Below, one piece after another: positions 9,256-17,623 of a stretch of DNA of 34,082 nucleotides (within the stretch, counting starts at the first letter, position 1; each line of letters begins with the position of its first letter). A program made the translations under genes and the position numbers. The notes under the pieces are model-generated. The model did no database searches. It was given only the letters and a program-made list of their open reading frames with translations, and was not told the DNA's origin. The DNA comes from a virus (Duplodnaviria; Heunggongvirae; Uroviricota; Caudoviricetes), in the IMG/VR virus record IMGVR_UViG_3300045988_014597, positions 1 through 34,082 of that record; one strand, written 5' to 3'.

Positions 9256-9260
9256 AACTA

Positions 9261-9285
9261 AGGCCCCGTTTGGGGCCTTTTCTCT
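9261..9285. terminator. Bidirectional intrinsic terminator between convergent tail and replication modules
   Basis: AGGCCCC-GTTT-GGGGCCT hairpin flanked by an A-run upstream and a T-run downstream. Confidence 0.7.
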
Positions 9286-9424
9286 ACTCTTCAGATAACT
9301 TCTCCAGTACAAACGCCAGTTGCGCATTAGCGGCATCCCTCTGTTGCCGTAACCGCAGAACCTCTTCTTCAAGCTCCTTGATACGTTTTTGCAATGCTGG
9401 AATCGGGGCTATGATGTTCATCAT
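9284..9424 (-). CDS. Small coiled-coil hypothetical protein, 46 aa
   Basis: Reverse-strand ORF (MMNIIAPIPALQKRIKELEEEV...) whose ATG overlaps the stop of the upstream gene (ATGA). Too short for the ORF track. Confidence 0.3.
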   Translation of the reverse strand: MMNIIAPIPALQKRIKELEEEVLRLRQQRDAANAQLAFVLEKLSEE

Positions 9425-9612
9425 TCGAACTCCATAAAATCACCATTTACCGACTCTGTGTAAATTAGTCCTGTTCTATCATCGTAGCACGCACCCCAAC
9501 GATTGGCAGTGTTATCCATCACCACGAATTGCCCATCACCTTTGTACTCCGCAGCATAATAATTACCTTCATCGAAAACACCTATAGTAGAACTTACGCA
9601 AAACAGTTTCAT
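9421..9612 (-). CDS. Hypothetical protein, 63 aa
   Basis: ORF in the reverse-strand operon, contiguous with the helicase gene. Confidence 0.45.
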   Translation of the reverse strand: MKLFCVSSTIGVFDEGNYYAAEYKGDGQFVVMDNTANRWGACYDDRTGLIYTESVNGDFMEFE

Positions 9613-11033
9613 TTCTTACCTCGTCTCTTCATGTAATTAAGCAATTCTTCCTGTACTGATTTCTTCTCGTCGGTACGCGCGGCAACAACCTCGTCCAGCG
9701 TGTCTTTAGCGACGATGTGATAGAGGAACACCGGGCGCTCGTGGCCTGCCTGTTTCTGGCGTACGGGACCTATACGCTCGACAACCTGCAAATAGTGCTC
9801 AAGGTTCCAGCCTTGCGAGATGAACGCCAGATGATGCCCGCCGTCCTGTAAATTCAAACCATGGCCCGCTGACGCAGGATGTACGCATAGGATTTCGATT
9901 TCTCCACGGTTCCACGCTTCCATCTGCTTATTACCCTTAGCGCCTTTGGCGAATGCCTGGGCCTGCGGGAATCTCTTAAGGATGCGCTCCAGTTCGTGCT
10001 TAAACTGATAAGCCACAAGCAACGGCGCACCCTGTAACTCCTCGACAATGGACTCAAGCGCATCCAGTTTCGTGTCGTGCACTTTCTCCCAGTCTTTCGT
10101 TGCTTCTCCATCAGGCCCCGACACATACACGGCACCAGAAGCAATCTGCAGACACTTCGACGTCTTCGCCGCCGCGTTAGCCGCTTCAACTTCCCCGCTC
10201 TCGAGTTCCGCGAATAGCTTCTCCTCCATATCGATGTACGCCTGACGCGCTTTCTTCGGCAGGTCGATTTCAACCGGTACAATAATCGGCGCTTCACAGC
10301 CGAACCATTCGGCGGCGTCAATCGTGAGACTAATGTCCTTCATCTTCTGATGAATTTCATTATCTGCGCCCGGGCGTGCATGGTATTCACGGGCCATCGC
10401 TGACTTACCTTTCTGTACCGAGTTGAACCAGCGGTCGGTGAATGCTGTGTACGATGAACCAAGTCGCTCGCCTGCGTCGATAAACCAGTTCTGCCCCCAC
10501 AAGTCCTTGAGGCCGTTCGGTGATGGTGTACCTGTCAGGTTAATGAACCGCTTAACCTTACCGAACGCCACTTTACTAAGCGCCTTTGCCCGCTTGCTGC
10601 CGCCTGAACGGCTGCGGAATGATTTCAGCTTCGTGCTTTCATCGGCAACAATAACTGTAAAAGGCCAGTCGTCTTTGCCGTAGTAGTCAATCAGCCACTC
10701 GATAACTTCGTAGTTGGTACAAATCACATTGGCGTCAGACTCCAGCGCCGCGATACGGCGCTTCTCTGAACCTGTCGCATCTACGACATTCAGACACGGG
10801 AATTGCCATTTCTCTTGTTCTGCTGGCCATGTGCCGGACGCAACGCGCAGCGGGGCGAGTATTAACACGCGGTCATCGTCCGTAAGTTGCCCATTGCGAA
10901 ACAGGCGGTTGAGTACCCACATTGTCGACGAGGTCTTGCCGCCGCCCATACCGCACCAGATATTGCAACGTGGGTGCTGTAGTATAAACGACGTCATTAT
11001 TTTCTGGTACTCGCGCCTTTGAAACTTAGACAT
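9609..11033 (-). CDS. SNF2/DEAD-like ATP-dependent helicase, 474 aa
   Basis: Walker A CGMGGGKTS and a DExx box (VIVADEST), plus a C-terminal helicase region. Confidence 0.8.
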   Translation of the reverse strand: MSKFQRREYQKIMTSFILQHPRCNIWCGMGGGKTSSTMWVLNRLFRNGQLTDDDRVLILAPLRVASGTWPAEQEKWQFPCLNVVDATGSEKRRIAALESDANVICTNYEVIEWLIDYYGKDDWPFTVIVADESTKLKSFRSRSGGSKRAKALSKVAFGKVKRFINLTGTPSPNGLKDLWGQNWFIDAGERLGSSYTAFTDRWFNSVQKGKSAMAREYHARPGADNEIHQKMKDISLTIDAAEWFGCEAPIIVPVEIDLPKKARQAYIDMEEKLFAELESGEVEAANAAAKTSKCLQIASGAVYVSGPDGEATKDWEKVHDTKLDALESIVEELQGAPLLVAYQFKHELERILKRFPQAQAFAKGAKGNKQMEAWNRGEIEILCVHPASAGHGLNLQDGGHHLAFISQGWNLEHYLQVVERIGPVRQKQAGHERPVFLYHIVAKDTLDEVVAARTDEKKSVQEELLNYMKRRGKK

Positions 11034-11709
11034 GATTAGCCTCGTAAACTGCTTTTGCGAAACCCCGCGGAGTAAGGCTGCGGATTGTTTTTGTCCGCAC
11101 TGATTTACCGCCTAATTTATTGTGTTGGTCTGAGTACCCATCACCAACGGCAACACATGATTTAACGGGCATAACAAAACCGTTACCAGCCCAAATACAT
11201 GTCTTCTTAGGGTACGCGTCCCGAGGTTTTATGTATTCAGGGAACATTGGATGCGTGTCGTCTTCCGGTAAATACCCGCCGTATTCGTACGGATTGAATA
11301 CATAATCAGGCTTACGCCATAAAGACGAAAGAACGCTAACCGGGTTCTCAATCATATAAGGTACGTTGTACTTTTTAGCAAGACGCGCCGCCACTTTGCA
11401 TGTAATCACGGCCTCTACCTGAAACGTTGGATTCTTCTTCCGTTTCGTTTCGAAATGCGCAGCACCACTAACGGCTAAATCTGTGCACGGAGGGAACGCG
11501 AAAATAATATCCGGCGCAACGTCGAAGTCGAATTTATTATCAATCCACGCGTTTATATAGTGGATGTTCTCGTGTTCAACTTTCGAACCCAATCGCGCGT
11601 AGTCGCCGTGGTCGGCACCGTCGTAGTTGAAACAATAGCAAGTATGGCCCGCTTCTGCCCACGGTTGGGCCATGAGGCCCGAACCGTCGAACAATGACCA
11701 GATAATCAT
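11026..11709 (-). CDS. Compact DNA (cytosine-5) methyltransferase-like protein, 227 aa
   Basis: C5-methyltransferase signature order: motif I LFDGSG, PC motif FAFPPCTDLAVSG, ENV-like motif MIENP, C-terminal RSLTPRGFAKAV resembling motif IX. Very short, so the target-recognition domain must be minimal. Confidence 0.6.
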   Translation of the reverse strand: MIIWSLFDGSGLMAQPWAEAGHTCYCFNYDGADHGDYARLGSKVEHENIHYINAWIDNKFDFDVAPDIIFAFPPCTDLAVSGAAHFETKRKKNPTFQVEAVITCKVAARLAKKYNVPYMIENPVSVLSSLWRKPDYVFNPYEYGGYLPEDDTHPMFPEYIKPRDAYPKKTCIWAGNGFVMPVKSCVAVGDGYSDQHNKLGGKSVRTKTIRSLTPRGFAKAVYEANHV

Positions 11710-11897
11710 TTCAACACCAGAACTAACTCTTTACGTCCAAACGCCGTAACGTTACCGGTTACATCTTCGATAACCAGTTTACCGTTCGACTCGACGTATA
11801 CCGTATCAACGGCAACAGGACGACGTGTCTTAACGTTGAAAATCATGTCACCCGGTACGATGTCACGTGCTGGTTTGCGGTCGTATTCGTGTTTCAT
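11706..11897 (-). CDS. Hypothetical protein, 63 aa
   Basis: ORF directly downstream of a family A promoter, AAGGA-type RBS; stop overlaps the next start. Confidence 0.5.
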   Translation of the reverse strand: MKHEYDRKPARDIVPGDMIFNVKTRRPVAVDTVYVESNGKLVIEDVTGNVTAFGRKELVLVLK

Positions 11898-11908
11898 TTC
11901 TCAATTCC

Positions 11909-12214
11909 TTATATTGTTGGTGTATGACTACTATAATAGTTCGCTATTAGGTCGTCAACCTGTTTAAACGACCCGACGACAAAAACATTTGCGCCACGTT
12001 TGCGCATACGCTCATGTTCCCTCAGCTGGTGAGGGTCTGGCTTCGTATTTTCGTCTTTCTTAACCTCGACGAACCAGACGATGCCTCCGGGGAGAATTAC
12101 CAGGAGGTCAGGGGCCCCCACTCTATTTTCGTACGACAATTTGCGTACGAGGCCACCGAGGGCCTCAAATCGCTCTTTTGCGTATTTCTGGATGCGCCCC
12201 TCAGGCGTACTCAT
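11909..12214 (-). CDS. VRR-NUC domain nuclease (PD-(D/E)xK), about 101 aa
   Basis: GAPDLLVILPGG...FVEVKK pattern. ATG at 12214 preferred over the upstream alternative start used by the ORF track. Confidence 0.65.
   Translation of the reverse strand: MSTPEGRIQKYAKERFEALGGLVRKLSYENRVGAPDLLVILPGGIVWFVEVKKDENTKPDPHQLREHERMRKRGANVFVVGSFKQVDDLIANYYSSHTPTI
11929..11957 (-). promoter_or_regulatory. Family A sigma70-like promoter (TTGACG-N17-TATAGT) with embedded palindrome AATAG-N4-CTATT
   Basis: Reverse strand reads TTGACGACCTAATAGCGAACTATTATAGT; -35 at 11952-11957, -10 at 11929-11934, palindrome at 11934-11947. Confidence 0.6.
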
Positions 12215-12300
12215 AATACGCACCCCTCACGTTTCGTATGTTCAATACCGCAGCGCGGACAGATTCGACAGTCTTCTTCGTAGAACCAGTAAATTTTCAT
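12211..12300 (-). CDS. Small zinc-ribbon-like protein, 29 aa
   Basis: MKIYWFYEEDCRICPRCGIEHTKREGCVL, with a CxxCxxC cluster; ATGA overlaps at both ends. Confidence 0.3.
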   Translation of the reverse strand: MKIYWFYEEDCRICPRCGIEHTKREGCVL

Positions 12301-12428
12301 TCCAGCACCCACAGATAAATTGCGATGAACATGCCCAATATGGCAACCATCATGCCGTATTGACCCTCGTGACAGTAGATACCGGCGGCGAATCCCGCCA
12401 GTACCGCGATAATCAGTTTACTTGGCAT
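12297..12428 (-). CDS. Small membrane protein, 43 aa, two predicted hydrophobic helices
   Basis: MPSKLIIAVLAGFAAGIYCHEGQYGMMVAILGMFIAIYLWVLE; start overlaps the 3' end of the polymerase gene. Confidence 0.3.
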   Translation of the reverse strand: MPSKLIIAVLAGFAAGIYCHEGQYGMMVAILGMFIAIYLWVLE

Positions 12429-14589
12429 AACGTTTTAACTCCTGACCTTCCGCTACAAGAGGGAAGCCTTCTGCCCACTCAGGTAATTCACACATCAACC
12501 GCTCAAGTTCAGCCACATTGTATTCCGGCGTATCTGGTGTCTCACAGATAATTTCGTCGTGTACGTGAAGCACAATCGGATAGCCGTTAGCTTCTACATT
12601 CAGCAGCGCATTAGCCAGCAAATCACGGCATAGCGCCTGAGTGCAGTTTTCCACCAGTTTACCAGAGTAGGTGTACTGGAAGCCCCACTGACGGGTTAAC
12701 TGGTTCTCCCCCTGGTACTTGATACGCACGTTAGTAGACACCTTTCCGTCTTCGTCTGTCTCTTTCGACACGCTTAACCCGACTCCGGGGTATGACATAA
12801 CACGACCTGACGGCAACGTCATGCGCAACCACCAGCCAGCGACTTTGTTGCCGTTGATGTCTGTCTCCACGTTGCGCGAAAACTTAACGCCGCGCGGCCC
12901 TGCGGTGAACTCTTTACCTGGATTGCGGATAGCTGCCATAGCCGCATCTTCAATATCTCGCCAGAATTGGACTATTGCAGGATTAGCTTCCCGGTACATG
13001 CGTTTTAAAGCGTCACAGGTACGCCACACTTTCTTATCCAGAATATACGACGGTCGGTCATCCTTTTCGCCGGGTCTCGGCGGTCTCTTGGCTTCCTGAA
13101 TGCGTGCCCACTCATATCCGCGTGCGGTAGCGGCCCAGATGTGGTCAGGGAATGACCTGTCTAAAGTGCGGGTCATATCATTCAAATCAAGACCTAAGTT
13201 TTTAGCAAACGTGACGAAAGCACCTACACCCCCCGCGTAGCCGAGGCCCAGAACCATTGCTTTGGCTATTTGTCTTTGGTCCTTTGTTACAGCCTCGTAC
13301 GCAACGTTGAACACAGTTGATGCGAGTTTCTTATACACATCAACCCCGTTTACAAATACTTCTATTAAATCGTCTTCACCAGCCAGCCACGCTAAACCAC
13401 GGCCTTCGACGTTCGAGTAGTCGGCGACGACAAACTTATGCCCCACTTCCGGTATGATGCAGCTTCGCACCGTCGATGCCGTTAGCTTGGCTACATCGAA
13501 ACGGCGATGTGCACGGCCTTTAAGTAACGCTGAAATGCCTTTATCCAGTTCATCATCATGATAGTACCCGCGCGACTGGTTATGCGGCTGGAAGCCTTTA
13601 CCCGCAAACCGTAATGTACGCTTGGCCCCGCCATACTGGATGCAACCGCGGCGTCGGTCGTCAGAAGAACGGCCCAACAACAGTGGTCTATATTTCGTTG
13701 ACGCGGTAGACGCGGCCCCGAGGCGCATTTCGATAATCGTGCGAGCGTCGTCCGGTAAATCATCATCCGCCAGCAGGTCGTTAAGCGTAGACTTCTGCGC
13801 ATTGTGGATGCGGTGCGCTGGCGCAAGTTCACGCAGAATCGGAAGGAAGTCTTTACCAGTCAGCGAGCCGCCGTATTTGCGTTGGGCTTCTTCCTGTAAC
13901 TGTGCCTTGTGCTTCTCCACGGCTTCAATCGCGGCTTCCGCCAGTGCGACGTCAACCTTAAACCCCCTGTCATTGATTAACTGATCCAGTTCCAGTACAC
14001 GGTCCTCGAACTCGGAGTTACCCCACCGCGGCAGCTTATGGAACACTTCACGCATCGCAGTGATGTCACTCACGGCGTACTTGATGAACAGCGCCCATTC
14101 TTCCGGGTGTGTGTCCGCGGTGTAGCGGCGGATTTTGTAGTTCTTCGGTGTCGGTTTAGAGAAACGCTGAATCAGCGCCTTGCCGCGTTTATCTTTTGCG
14201 TTGTCCGCGGATACGCCAAGCACTTCACACAGCGCATCGAGTGACCCCGGCAGCGCGTGACGAAACGCCCAAATCATCGTATCAATGGTGTTGCTTACCG
14301 GAATATCAAAGCCCCAGCAGCGCTTCATGATTAGCCTGTCGAACATTGAGCCGTTATGCCACACCATCTTAATGCGGCTGTTCGGCTTCACCAGGCGGCG
14401 TAGAGCGCGGTGCAAATCTCCTGGCATGTCGCTGCTGTCGGTGCAATCCCATACCCGCACAGGTTCGTCGTCGAAAGCATATGTACAGATAAGCACTTCG
14501 GTAGTCGGGTGTTCGGCATAAGCGTAGGAGCCGACTTTCTTTAAATCGGCCTCGGAGAATGTTTCAAAGTCTAAGAACAGGTAACTCAT
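12418..14589 (-). CDS. DNA polymerase, family A (Pol I-like) with 3'-5' exonuclease domain, 723 aa
   Basis: Exo motifs FLDFETFS and YAVSDI; polymerase motif A VVADYSNVEGR, motif B RQIAKAMVLGLGYAGG, motif C VLHVHDEI. Confidence 0.93.
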   Translation of the reverse strand: MSYLFLDFETFSEADLKKVGSYAYAEHPTTEVLICTYAFDDEPVRVWDCTDSSDMPGDLHRALRRLVKPNSRIKMVWHNGSMFDRLIMKRCWGFDIPVSNTIDTMIWAFRHALPGSLDALCEVLGVSADNAKDKRGKALIQRFSKPTPKNYKIRRYTADTHPEEWALFIKYAVSDITAMREVFHKLPRWGNSEFEDRVLELDQLINDRGFKVDVALAEAAIEAVEKHKAQLQEEAQRKYGGSLTGKDFLPILRELAPAHRIHNAQKSTLNDLLADDDLPDDARTIIEMRLGAASTASTKYRPLLLGRSSDDRRRGCIQYGGAKRTLRFAGKGFQPHNQSRGYYHDDELDKGISALLKGRAHRRFDVAKLTASTVRSCIIPEVGHKFVVADYSNVEGRGLAWLAGEDDLIEVFVNGVDVYKKLASTVFNVAYEAVTKDQRQIAKAMVLGLGYAGGVGAFVTFAKNLGLDLNDMTRTLDRSFPDHIWAATARGYEWARIQEAKRPPRPGEKDDRPSYILDKKVWRTCDALKRMYREANPAIVQFWRDIEDAAMAAIRNPGKEFTAGPRGVKFSRNVETDINGNKVAGWWLRMTLPSGRVMSYPGVGLSVSKETDEDGKVSTNVRIKYQGENQLTRQWGFQYTYSGKLVENCTQALCRDLLANALLNVEANGYPIVLHVHDEIICETPDTPEYNVAELERLMCELPEWAEGFPLVAEGQELKRYAK

Positions 14590-15338: not shown

Positions 15339-15368
15339 ACTATAATAGCTTACTATTCAGGTTGTCAA
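15339..15368 (-). promoter_or_regulatory. Family A sigma70-like promoter (TTGACA-N18-TATAGT) with embedded palindrome GAATAG-N4-CTATT
   Basis: Reverse strand reads TTGACAACCTGAATAGTAAGCTATTATAGT; palindrome at 15344-15357. A CCGGG-N5-CCCGG hairpin at 15313-15327 lies in the 5' leader. Confidence 0.6.
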
Positions 15369-17593: not shown

Positions 17594-17623
17594 ACTATAA
17601 TAGCAAACTATTCATGTTGTCAA
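17594..17623 (-). promoter_or_regulatory. Family A sigma70-like promoter (TTGACA-N18-TATAGT) with embedded palindrome (T)GAATAG-N4-CTATT
   Basis: Reverse strand reads TTGACAACATGAATAGTTTGCTATTATAGT; palindrome at 17599-17612. Divergent from the HTH gene promoter. Confidence 0.6.

Follow-up and report, generated by a model that had tools for sequence, protein, structure and literature searches.

Two short open reading frames (ORFs) fill the interval between a DNA polymerase gene and a VRR-NUC nuclease gene on the minus strand of the IMG/VR virus record IMGVR_UViG_3300045988_014597. Are these frames genes, or do they merely happen to be open between two enzyme genes? We analysed the whole stretch of 34,082 nucleotides (nt), referred to here as the window. 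A first-pass annotation of the window had placed two micro-ORFs between the polymerase and nuclease genes, and we found both of them:

12297..12428 (read 12428..12297), minus strand: p43, a 43-codon ORF, MPSKLIIAVLAGFAAGIYCHEGQYGMMVAILGMFIAIYLWVLE, identified by ORF reading, phrog_10404, homologues and the ratio of nonsynonymous to synonymous substitution (dN/dS)
12211..12300 (read 12300..12211), minus strand: p29, a 29-codon Cys/His-rich ORF, MKIYWFYEEDCRICPRCGIEHTKREGCVL, identified by ORF reading, phrog_38225 and dN/dS

Both ORFs are under purifying selection and are conserved in length, in position and in their start/stop overlaps. Very likely, both are real protein-coding genes of very small size, located within the minus-strand replication operon of a Guernseyvirinae siphophage.

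Coding status of p43 and p29

Relatives were taken from 50 Guernseyvirinae loci from IMG/VR plus GenBank loci, and selection was analysed over 54 loci, with dN/dS calculated pairwise by the Nei-Gojobori method over unique sequences. Conservation and synonymous substitution across related phages had been proposed as a check on the two frames, and the result speaks for coding, as purifying selection is as strong as in the flanking enzymes. For p43 the dN/dS is 0.21 (nonsynonymous diversity, pN, 0.052; synonymous diversity, pS, 0.215) and for p29 it is 0.076 (pN 0.045, pS 0.417), compared with 0.097 for the last 100 codons of the polymerase (pN 0.111, pS 0.608) and 0.15 for VRR-NUC (pN 0.093, pS 0.436). 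At the same loci the two alternative frames give ratios of 1.1-3.2, and third codon positions are 2.5-6.6 times as diverse in nucleotides as positions 1 and 2. The values hold when overlapped codons and those of the ribosome-binding sites are excluded (p43 0.20, bootstrap 0.08-0.26; p29 0.077, bootstrap 0.03-0.20).

The frames are also intact in almost all relatives, where frameshifts or stops had been named as grounds for rejecting them. The length of p43 is 43 amino acids (aa) in 47 loci, and the 62 clusters of p43 homologues, which derive from ~43-kilobase phage contigs or fragments and show 77-98% identity, are nearly all exactly 43 aa long. We found p29 in 54 of the 54 Guernseyvirinae loci and, using tblastn, in 445 GenBank phage records (443 near full length); the same search detected p43 in 224 GenBank phage records, near full length in 222. 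Amino-acid identity to the p43 and p29 of relatives is 86-100%.

Two findings weigh against p43 and p29 being genes. The first concerns the exact tiling of the gap by the two frames, which had been put forward as unlikely by chance. This argument did not survive 20,000 dinucleotide-preserving shuffles of the 203-nt interval with its native flanks kept: a chain of ORFs of 20 or more codons bridged the interval in 28% of the shuffles when any start codon was allowed, and this share fell to 17% when starts were restricted to ATG and to 3% when gaps were disallowed as well. Tiling by itself is weak evidence, and the case therefore rests on comparative evidence. The second is the existence of rare p43 variants with a frameshift, a stop loss or a truncation (P0001, P0058, P0060, P0062 and P0063), which may be true polymorphisms or assembly errors. 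Three of them (P0060, P0062 and P0063) carry 1-nt frameshifts that enter the p29 frame and give 72-73-aa fusions of the p43 N-terminus with p29 (p43N-p29); there is also one stop-loss extension (73 aa) and one 39-aa truncation. These rare database variants affect p43 and leave the p29 sequence intact. The only record with a broken p29 is that of phage M01, and because its polymerase is fragmented too, this suggests sequencing errors.

The shuffling result favours the idea that p43 and p29 are open only by chance and that the polymerase and VRR-NUC genes are separated by a non-coding spacer or a regulatory RNA, as does the annotation of neither or just one of them in several GenBank records. 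However, codon periodicity and low dN/dS are confined to the proposed frames, both length and frame are conserved in hundreds of genomes, the region has no Rfam match and its RNA folding is not unusual (z = -0.42). We regard this explanation as extremely improbable. A search of the region for tandem repeats returned none of relevance.

On the opposite strand, a 156-aa ORF (12081..12551, plus strand) spans the whole region in the window, so that the conserved sequence might belong to this frame and the minus-strand micro-ORFs might be its shadows. Of 47 related loci, 38 have 1-4 stop codons within the 156-aa frame, which would also need antisense overlap with both the polymerase and the VRR-NUC genes. 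The probability that it is the conserved frame is close to nil, and the 156-aa ORF itself appears to be the shadow. A second plus-strand ORF (89 aa, 12014-12283) lies antisense in the same region.

Diversity differs along the locus. At synonymous sites p43 (pS 0.22) is roughly half as diverse as p29, VRR-NUC and the polymerase end (0.42-0.61), possibly as a result of recent spread by recombination or of gene conversion linked to homing. Across the loci L001-L054, the identity of the last 100 polymerase residues (12421-12720, minus strand) is bimodal, at 92-100% versus 70-82%, whereas p43 and p29 are uniformly similar, which suggests a mosaic recombination boundary close to the polymerase 3' end.

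Junctions and variation of the locus

The micro-ORFs had been described as joined to every neighbour by an ATGA overlap of start and stop. This description fits the p43/p29 and p29/VRR-NUC junctions; between the polymerase and p43 the overlap is 11 nt long and not ATGA. The junctions and the Shine-Dalgarno-like motifs that accompany them, in the order of reading, are:

12439..12442, minus strand: GGAG Shine-Dalgarno-like motif that precedes the p43 ATG by 10 nt and lies within the polymerase coding sequence
12418..12428, minus strand: 11-nt overlap of the polymerase gene and p43, with the p43 ATG 8 nt before the polymerase stop, ATGCCAAGTAA
12297..12300, minus strand: ATGA overlap of the p43 stop TGA and the p29 start ATG (in relatives, ATGA at 45 of 47 loci and GTGA at 2 of 47)
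12223..12228, minus strand: GAGGGG Shine-Dalgarno-like motif in p29 codons 25-26, 8 nt upstream of the next ATG and conserved before all seven downstream ORF types
12211..12214, minus strand: ATGA overlap of the p29 stop TGA and the VRR-NUC start ATG (in relatives, the same overlap starts other ORFs)

In 47 of 47 loci, a GGAG or GAGG motif precedes the p43 ATG by 6-10 nt, and it does so in three unrelated upstream contexts; it is kept even in two loci where the upstream context is an HNH endonuclease gene and not the polymerase. At the p29 start there is only weak complementarity to a ribosome-binding site (GGGTG / TGGA), which, together with the ATGA or GTGA shared with the p43 stop, fits reinitiation by terminating ribosomes. 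The stop/start overlaps are conserved among relatives, with ATGA or GTGA in 47 of 47 loci, and the p43-p29 chain is probably translationally coupled. Downstream of p29, the relatives carry one of seven ORF types: VRR-NUC, a 50-aa ORF with two transmembrane segments (two-TM), a 64-aa ORF or its 63-aa variant, 23-aa and 25-aa one-TM ORFs, and a 165-aa HNH endonuclease. All seven begin at the same ATGA/GTGA overlap with p29, behind GAGGGG. Where an ORF is inserted, its own junction to VRR-NUC is ATGA, GTGA, TAATG or TGATG.

In the mechanism that we propose, p43 would be initiated at the ATG behind GGAG, close before the polymerase stop, by ribosomes that either bind de novo or have just completed the polymerase. 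Translation of p29 would then probably occur mainly by termination-reinitiation at the ATGA junction with p43, and the last codons of p29 would supply the GAGGGG ribosome-binding site for the following gene, whose start overlaps the p29 stop. The geometry of the junctions is the basis of this scheme.

These signals also bear on a different role for p29. It could be chiefly a cis-acting coupling device, that is, a short leader ORF whose role is to supply the next gene with ribosomes and a ribosome-binding site, with a peptide that has no trans function or acts only as a nascent regulatory peptide. The conserved GAGGGG at its 3' end and the overlap of its stop with the next start over seven downstream types agree with such a device, and p29 is merely 29 codons long, with no homologue beyond its own family and no fold match. 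Part of its conservation (E25 and G26) could likewise reflect the embedded ribosome-binding site, a further point against p29 as a protein selected for its product. Pure ribosome delivery, however, has no need of a fixed amino-acid sequence, and p29 has one: codons 3-23, which are free of overlap and of the ribosome-binding site, show a dN/dS of 0.077 with a pS of 0.43, and 16 residues, among them Cys and His in an arrangement typical of metal sites, do not vary in an alignment of the 19 distinct p29 variants. We consider the leader-ORF explanation improbable, although p29 might act as a nascent-peptide regulator, and regard it as a probable protein-coding gene whose 3' end also carries a translation signal.

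Seven loci have neither a separate p43 nor a separate p29. They contain a single 33-36-aa ORF (MLSKLII-YYF(R/H)EEDCRICPRCGIEHTKREGC...) that starts at the p43 ATG, and in the sequence of this fused clade MLSKLII is followed directly by YYF(R/H)EEDCRICPRCG.... In unfused relatives of the SETP7 type, the octamer TGATTATC occurs twice, 116 nt apart, once in p43 codons 5-7 and once in p29 codons 1-3, and the fused ORF is the exact product of a deletion between these TGATTATC repeats. By the tblastn counts, Jerseyvirus records without p43 number over 200. In about half of the lineages, this 116-nt deletion between 8-base-pair repeats has eliminated p43. It removes the predicted membrane peptide and joins p29 directly to the p43 initiation region, from which p29 would continue to be expressed. 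The fused ORF is under purifying selection (dN/dS 0.04, from only four unique sequences). The loss of p43 with retention of p29 in this clade points to p29 as the constant element, present in every member, and to p43 as an accessory, dispensable one.

The deletion clade is also relevant to the possibility that p29 is mainly the C-terminal part of a larger product, which would arise if ribosomes either read through the polymerase stop or left the p43 frame by programmed frameshifting. From the polymerase TAA onwards, the frame common to the polymerase and p29 stays open as far as the p29 stop in 41 of 47 loci, and p43N-p29 frameshift fusions occur, rarely, among database proteins. Yet the polymerase/p29 frame is unconstrained across p43 (dN/dS 1.9) and has an extra stop in 6 loci, and in the deletion clade p29 lies in the frame of the p43 start, not in that of the polymerase. 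These three observations led us to rule out a readthrough or frameshift fusion as a conserved mechanism. Moreover, no canonical slippery heptamer is visible at the junction, and an open alternative frame would be expected opposite T-rich hydrophobic codons. A fused product as the main form of p29 is highly improbable, and separate translation of p43 and p29 remains our preferred explanation.

Both micro-genes are absent from distant phages that have the polymerase/VRR-NUC pair. The two enzyme genes are adjacent in the Dhillonvirus 'welsh', an HNH gene lies between them in phiEap-2, and unrelated genes occupy the position in the IMG/VR loci L055-L083. We looked for a zinc motif in the polymerase C-terminus of Dhillonvirus, which is without p29, and found none there. 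The window represents the minimal architecture, in which a 29-aa p29 is followed directly by VRR-NUC, as it also is in two relatives (L008 and L011); many relatives have a 32-aa form of p29 or extra ORFs after it.

HNH homing-endonuclease genes are found on either flank of p43-p29 in different relatives, between the polymerase and p43 in L009 and L024 and after p29 in L045/L050. A truncated HNH remnant is present in L051/L088 (Jersey), and the HNH gene of phiEap-2 (L084, 2103-2582) starts in the same 11-nt overlap as p43 (MLS.L...). Both the polymerase gene and p29 seem to have a hotspot of homing or insertion at their 3' ends.

The predicted p29 and p43 products

The p29 sequence belongs to phrog_38225 (E-value, E=2.5e-22), with residues 1-28 aligned to profile positions 5-32 of 36. 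Its most prominent feature is the following motif, as supported by column counts over the 54 loci:

12247..12261, minus strand: CPRCG zinc-knuckle-like motif, p29 codons 14-18, followed by H21 and C27

Among the 54 loci, C14 and C27 are each conserved in 54, P15, C17 and G18 in 53, H21 in 52 and C11 in 48, and C14, C27 and thirteen further residues are invariant across all of them. These counts make C14, C17, H21 and C27, arranged around a single CPxCG knuckle, the likely ligand set. The peptide had been called a CxxC...C zinc ribbon, of which one CPxCG knuckle with H21 and C27 can be retained. A zinc ribbon has two CxxC(G) knuckles, which between them provide four ligands; p29 has one canonical knuckle (C14-P-R-C17-G), and H21 and C27 do not form a CxxC pair. 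The motif is better described, from its residues, as zinc-knuckle-like than as a demonstrated zinc ribbon.

Several results speak against assigning a function to p29, and some of them also against the ribbon fold. C11 is not conserved, being R or F in 6 of 54 loci. For p29, no match was detected in Pfam (E<=0.1), NCBIfam or PADLOC, and matches to PDB profiles cover only the six residues ICPRCG (E 0.35-5). The AlphaFold2 single-sequence model has a predicted local distance difference test score (pLDDT) of 60, is without secondary structure and is uninformative on the beta-hairpin that a ribbon would form around its metal site. With the 33-aa GTG-extended form of p29 as the query, phmmer against 1.84 billion representatives returned only its own family plus one low-complexity repeat protein. 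The functional assignments of both p29 and p43 are made with low confidence. With this in mind, p29 may be a metal-binding mini-protein (C14, C17, H21 and C27) that serves the replication/recombination module; it is universal and always stands directly after the polymerase or p43, whatever lies downstream.

The p43 sequence belongs to phrog_10404 (E=1.7e-31), with residues 1-43 aligned to profile positions 1-43 of 43. Two segments of the peptide are hydrophobic, residues 5-19 (15 residues, Kyte-Doolittle 2.38) and 26-42 (17 residues, 2.52), and between them lies the polar loop HEGQYG, which is conserved among homologues together with G12, Y18 and Y24. AlphaFold2, run with a 58-sequence alignment, places helices at residues 2-20 and 22-42 (mean pLDDT 80). 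Hydropathy and model thus agree with the earlier description of p43 as a two-helix membrane peptide, and both the length of the helices and the polar turn fit a predicted two-helix membrane hairpin. A fold search of the p43 model against viral structures (BFVD) returned only generic helical hairpins (best E=1.2).

Other identities were considered for p43 and set aside. A Pfam EMC6 match under the cut-off (E=5e-4) was treated as hydrophobic-hairpin noise. The ending AAGIYC of the first segment recalls a lipoprotein, but a lipobox would not have Tyr at position -1, and several homologues have R or Y in place of C19. We also rejected a holin or pinholin, as p43 lies inside the replication operon and not in a lysis cassette, ends in ...YLWVLE without a basic tail and is absent in about half of the relatives. 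The 50-aa two-TM ORF of relatives shows no detectable similarity to p43, and the two are not paralogues at this sensitivity. With low confidence, p43 may be an inner-membrane helical hairpin and an accessory peptide of the host-interaction type; it is dispensable and stands beside a slot that holds other small membrane peptides in relatives.

A broader proposal combines these elements, and we offer it as speculative and rather doubtful. The p29 3' end would be a fixed translational socket, where any ORF that lands inherits a ribosome-binding site and a coupled start; p29 would bind zinc as a subunit of the polymerase/resolvase module; and p43 would belong to a set of membrane peptides that can replace one another and that interact with the host, for example in exclusion. 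If true, the socket would explain a hotspot where at least seven micro-genes or homing-endonuclease genes exchange among Guernseyvirinae.

Operon context and known counterparts

By its sequence matches, the window comes from a Guernseyvirinae siphophage of the Kagunavirus/Jerseyvirus type. Using megablast, we found 449 phage records that match the region, all of them Kagunavirus/Jerseyvirus relatives, the best being Escherichia phage phiWAO78-1 with 90.7% identity. The two micro-genes and both flanking enzyme genes are encoded on the minus strand, and the flanking genes are:

12418..14589, minus strand: family-A DNA polymerase gene, 723 aa (Pfam DNA_pol_A, E=4e-22; annotated as DNA polymerase in relatives), upstream neighbour of p43
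11909..12214 (ATG at 12214), minus strand: VRR-NUC / Holliday-junction-resolvase-type gene, 101 aa (PDB, phrog_93), downstream neighbour of p29

The polymerase ORF ends in ...KRYAK-TAA, with its stop codon at 12420..12418 (minus strand). The 101-aa gene matches PDB entries 4qbn ('Nuclease', E=5e-52), 4qbl ('VRR-NUC') and 4qbo (E=1e-8) as well as phrog_93 (E=1.4e-33); its Pfam VRR_NUC match is under the cut-off (E=0.003, 17.8 vs 23.8 bits). The translation contains the PD-(D/E)xK nuclease signature GAPDLL...VEVKK. Similarity to solved VRR-NUC proteins and the PD-(D/E)xK motif both identify the product as a VRR-NUC-type nuclease.

The order of the minus-strand replication operon is polymerase, p43, p29, VRR-NUC, a 63-aa gene, methylase and SNF2 helicase. 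The tight coupling noted throughout the operon in the first-pass annotation is borne out by its eight consecutive junctions (9284-14589): five are 4-nt overlaps, two are longer overlaps (8 nt and 11 nt) and one, of 11 nt, is a gap. Promoter-like sites were detected at 15368..15339 and 17623..17594 and a strong terminator at 9279..9260, with nothing strong between them. A further promoter-like site (11958..11930) lies within the VRR-NUC 3' end, and the equivalent site carries a promoter annotation in phage Jersey. The 63-aa ORF after VRR-NUC (11706-11897, minus strand) is a member of phrog_4879 (E=5e-46), a conserved family with no assigned function. The operon is closed by two small minus-strand ORFs of 63 aa (9421..9612) and 46 aa (9284..9424) with ATGA overlaps, located before the strong terminator (9260-9279); the 46-aa ORF contains many heptad-like charged residues.

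Counterparts of p43 and p29 are already annotated in relatives. The pairs gp46/gp45 of phiWAO78-1, Bas70_0041/0040 and gp39/gp38 of VSe101, all 'hypothetical proteins' of phrog_10404/phrog_38225, have the same position, lengths and overlaps, and p43 and p29 of the window differ in nothing substantive from the members of phrog_10404 (43 aa) and phrog_38225 (up to 36 aa). Both genes are catalogued in PHROGs with function unassigned and conserved ATGA-coupled small ORFs are commonplace in phage operons; we found no paper dealing with these ORFs in the literature. Annotation of p29 is uneven: it is unannotated in the type phage Jersey (KF148055.1), in Ent1 (HE775250.1), in K1ind2 (NC_041898.1) and in many Jerseyvirus records, and in at least two records, PV040721.1 (BUCT825) and OQ442786.1 (JSSK01), a homologue is named '3-hydroxyanthranilate 3,4-dioxygenase' with no Pfam support. 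The practical value of our results is an annotation correction for many Jerseyvirus/Kagunavirus records, in which p29 is universal and many of which are therapy or biocontrol candidates. The locus is a clean and well-sampled case of phage genes of fewer than 50 codons under strong purifying selection, including a natural deletion that would keep p29 expressed. It also offers a tractable test case for small-protein function and translational coupling, and alters no current view.

Small inner-membrane proteins expressed with early or replication genes are known from other phages, such as Imm and Ac of T4 and p1 and p16.7 of phi29. Unlike these, p43 has no soluble domain, and it shares no sequence similarity or significant fold similarity with them (a T4-type 'acridine resistance protein' was matched in BFVD at E=5.3). 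It is likewise short and hydrophobic and is encoded among early or replication genes rather than in a lysis cassette, and, as with accessory exclusion-type genes, part of the lineage does without it.

Small zinc-finger proteins of phages include Com of Mu (62 aa) and Ogr of P2 / Delta of P4 (~72 aa). Compared with small zinc-finger and zinc-ribbon proteins, p29 is half the size, has one canonical knuckle instead of two and has relatives only in Guernseyvirinae. It resembles Com and Ogr/Delta as a very short polypeptide in which a CPxCG knuckle precedes additional Cys/His ligands, and its ICPRCG aligns with zinc-ribbon knuckles of S27ae, RpoM and Nop10, with the non-significant PDB matches given above.

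Coupling through overlapping stop and start codons (ATGA, TAATG) is known from the bacterial operons trpE-trpD and trpB-trpA and from many phage gene clusters. The locus, where coupling is probable, differs from these in its polymerase/p43 junction, an 11-nt overlap with its own GGAG. It resembles them in its 4-nt ATGA overlaps, in the weak ribosome-binding site before p29, in the exact coincidence of the end of one ORF with the start of the next and in a junction geometry that is conserved in hundreds of genomes.

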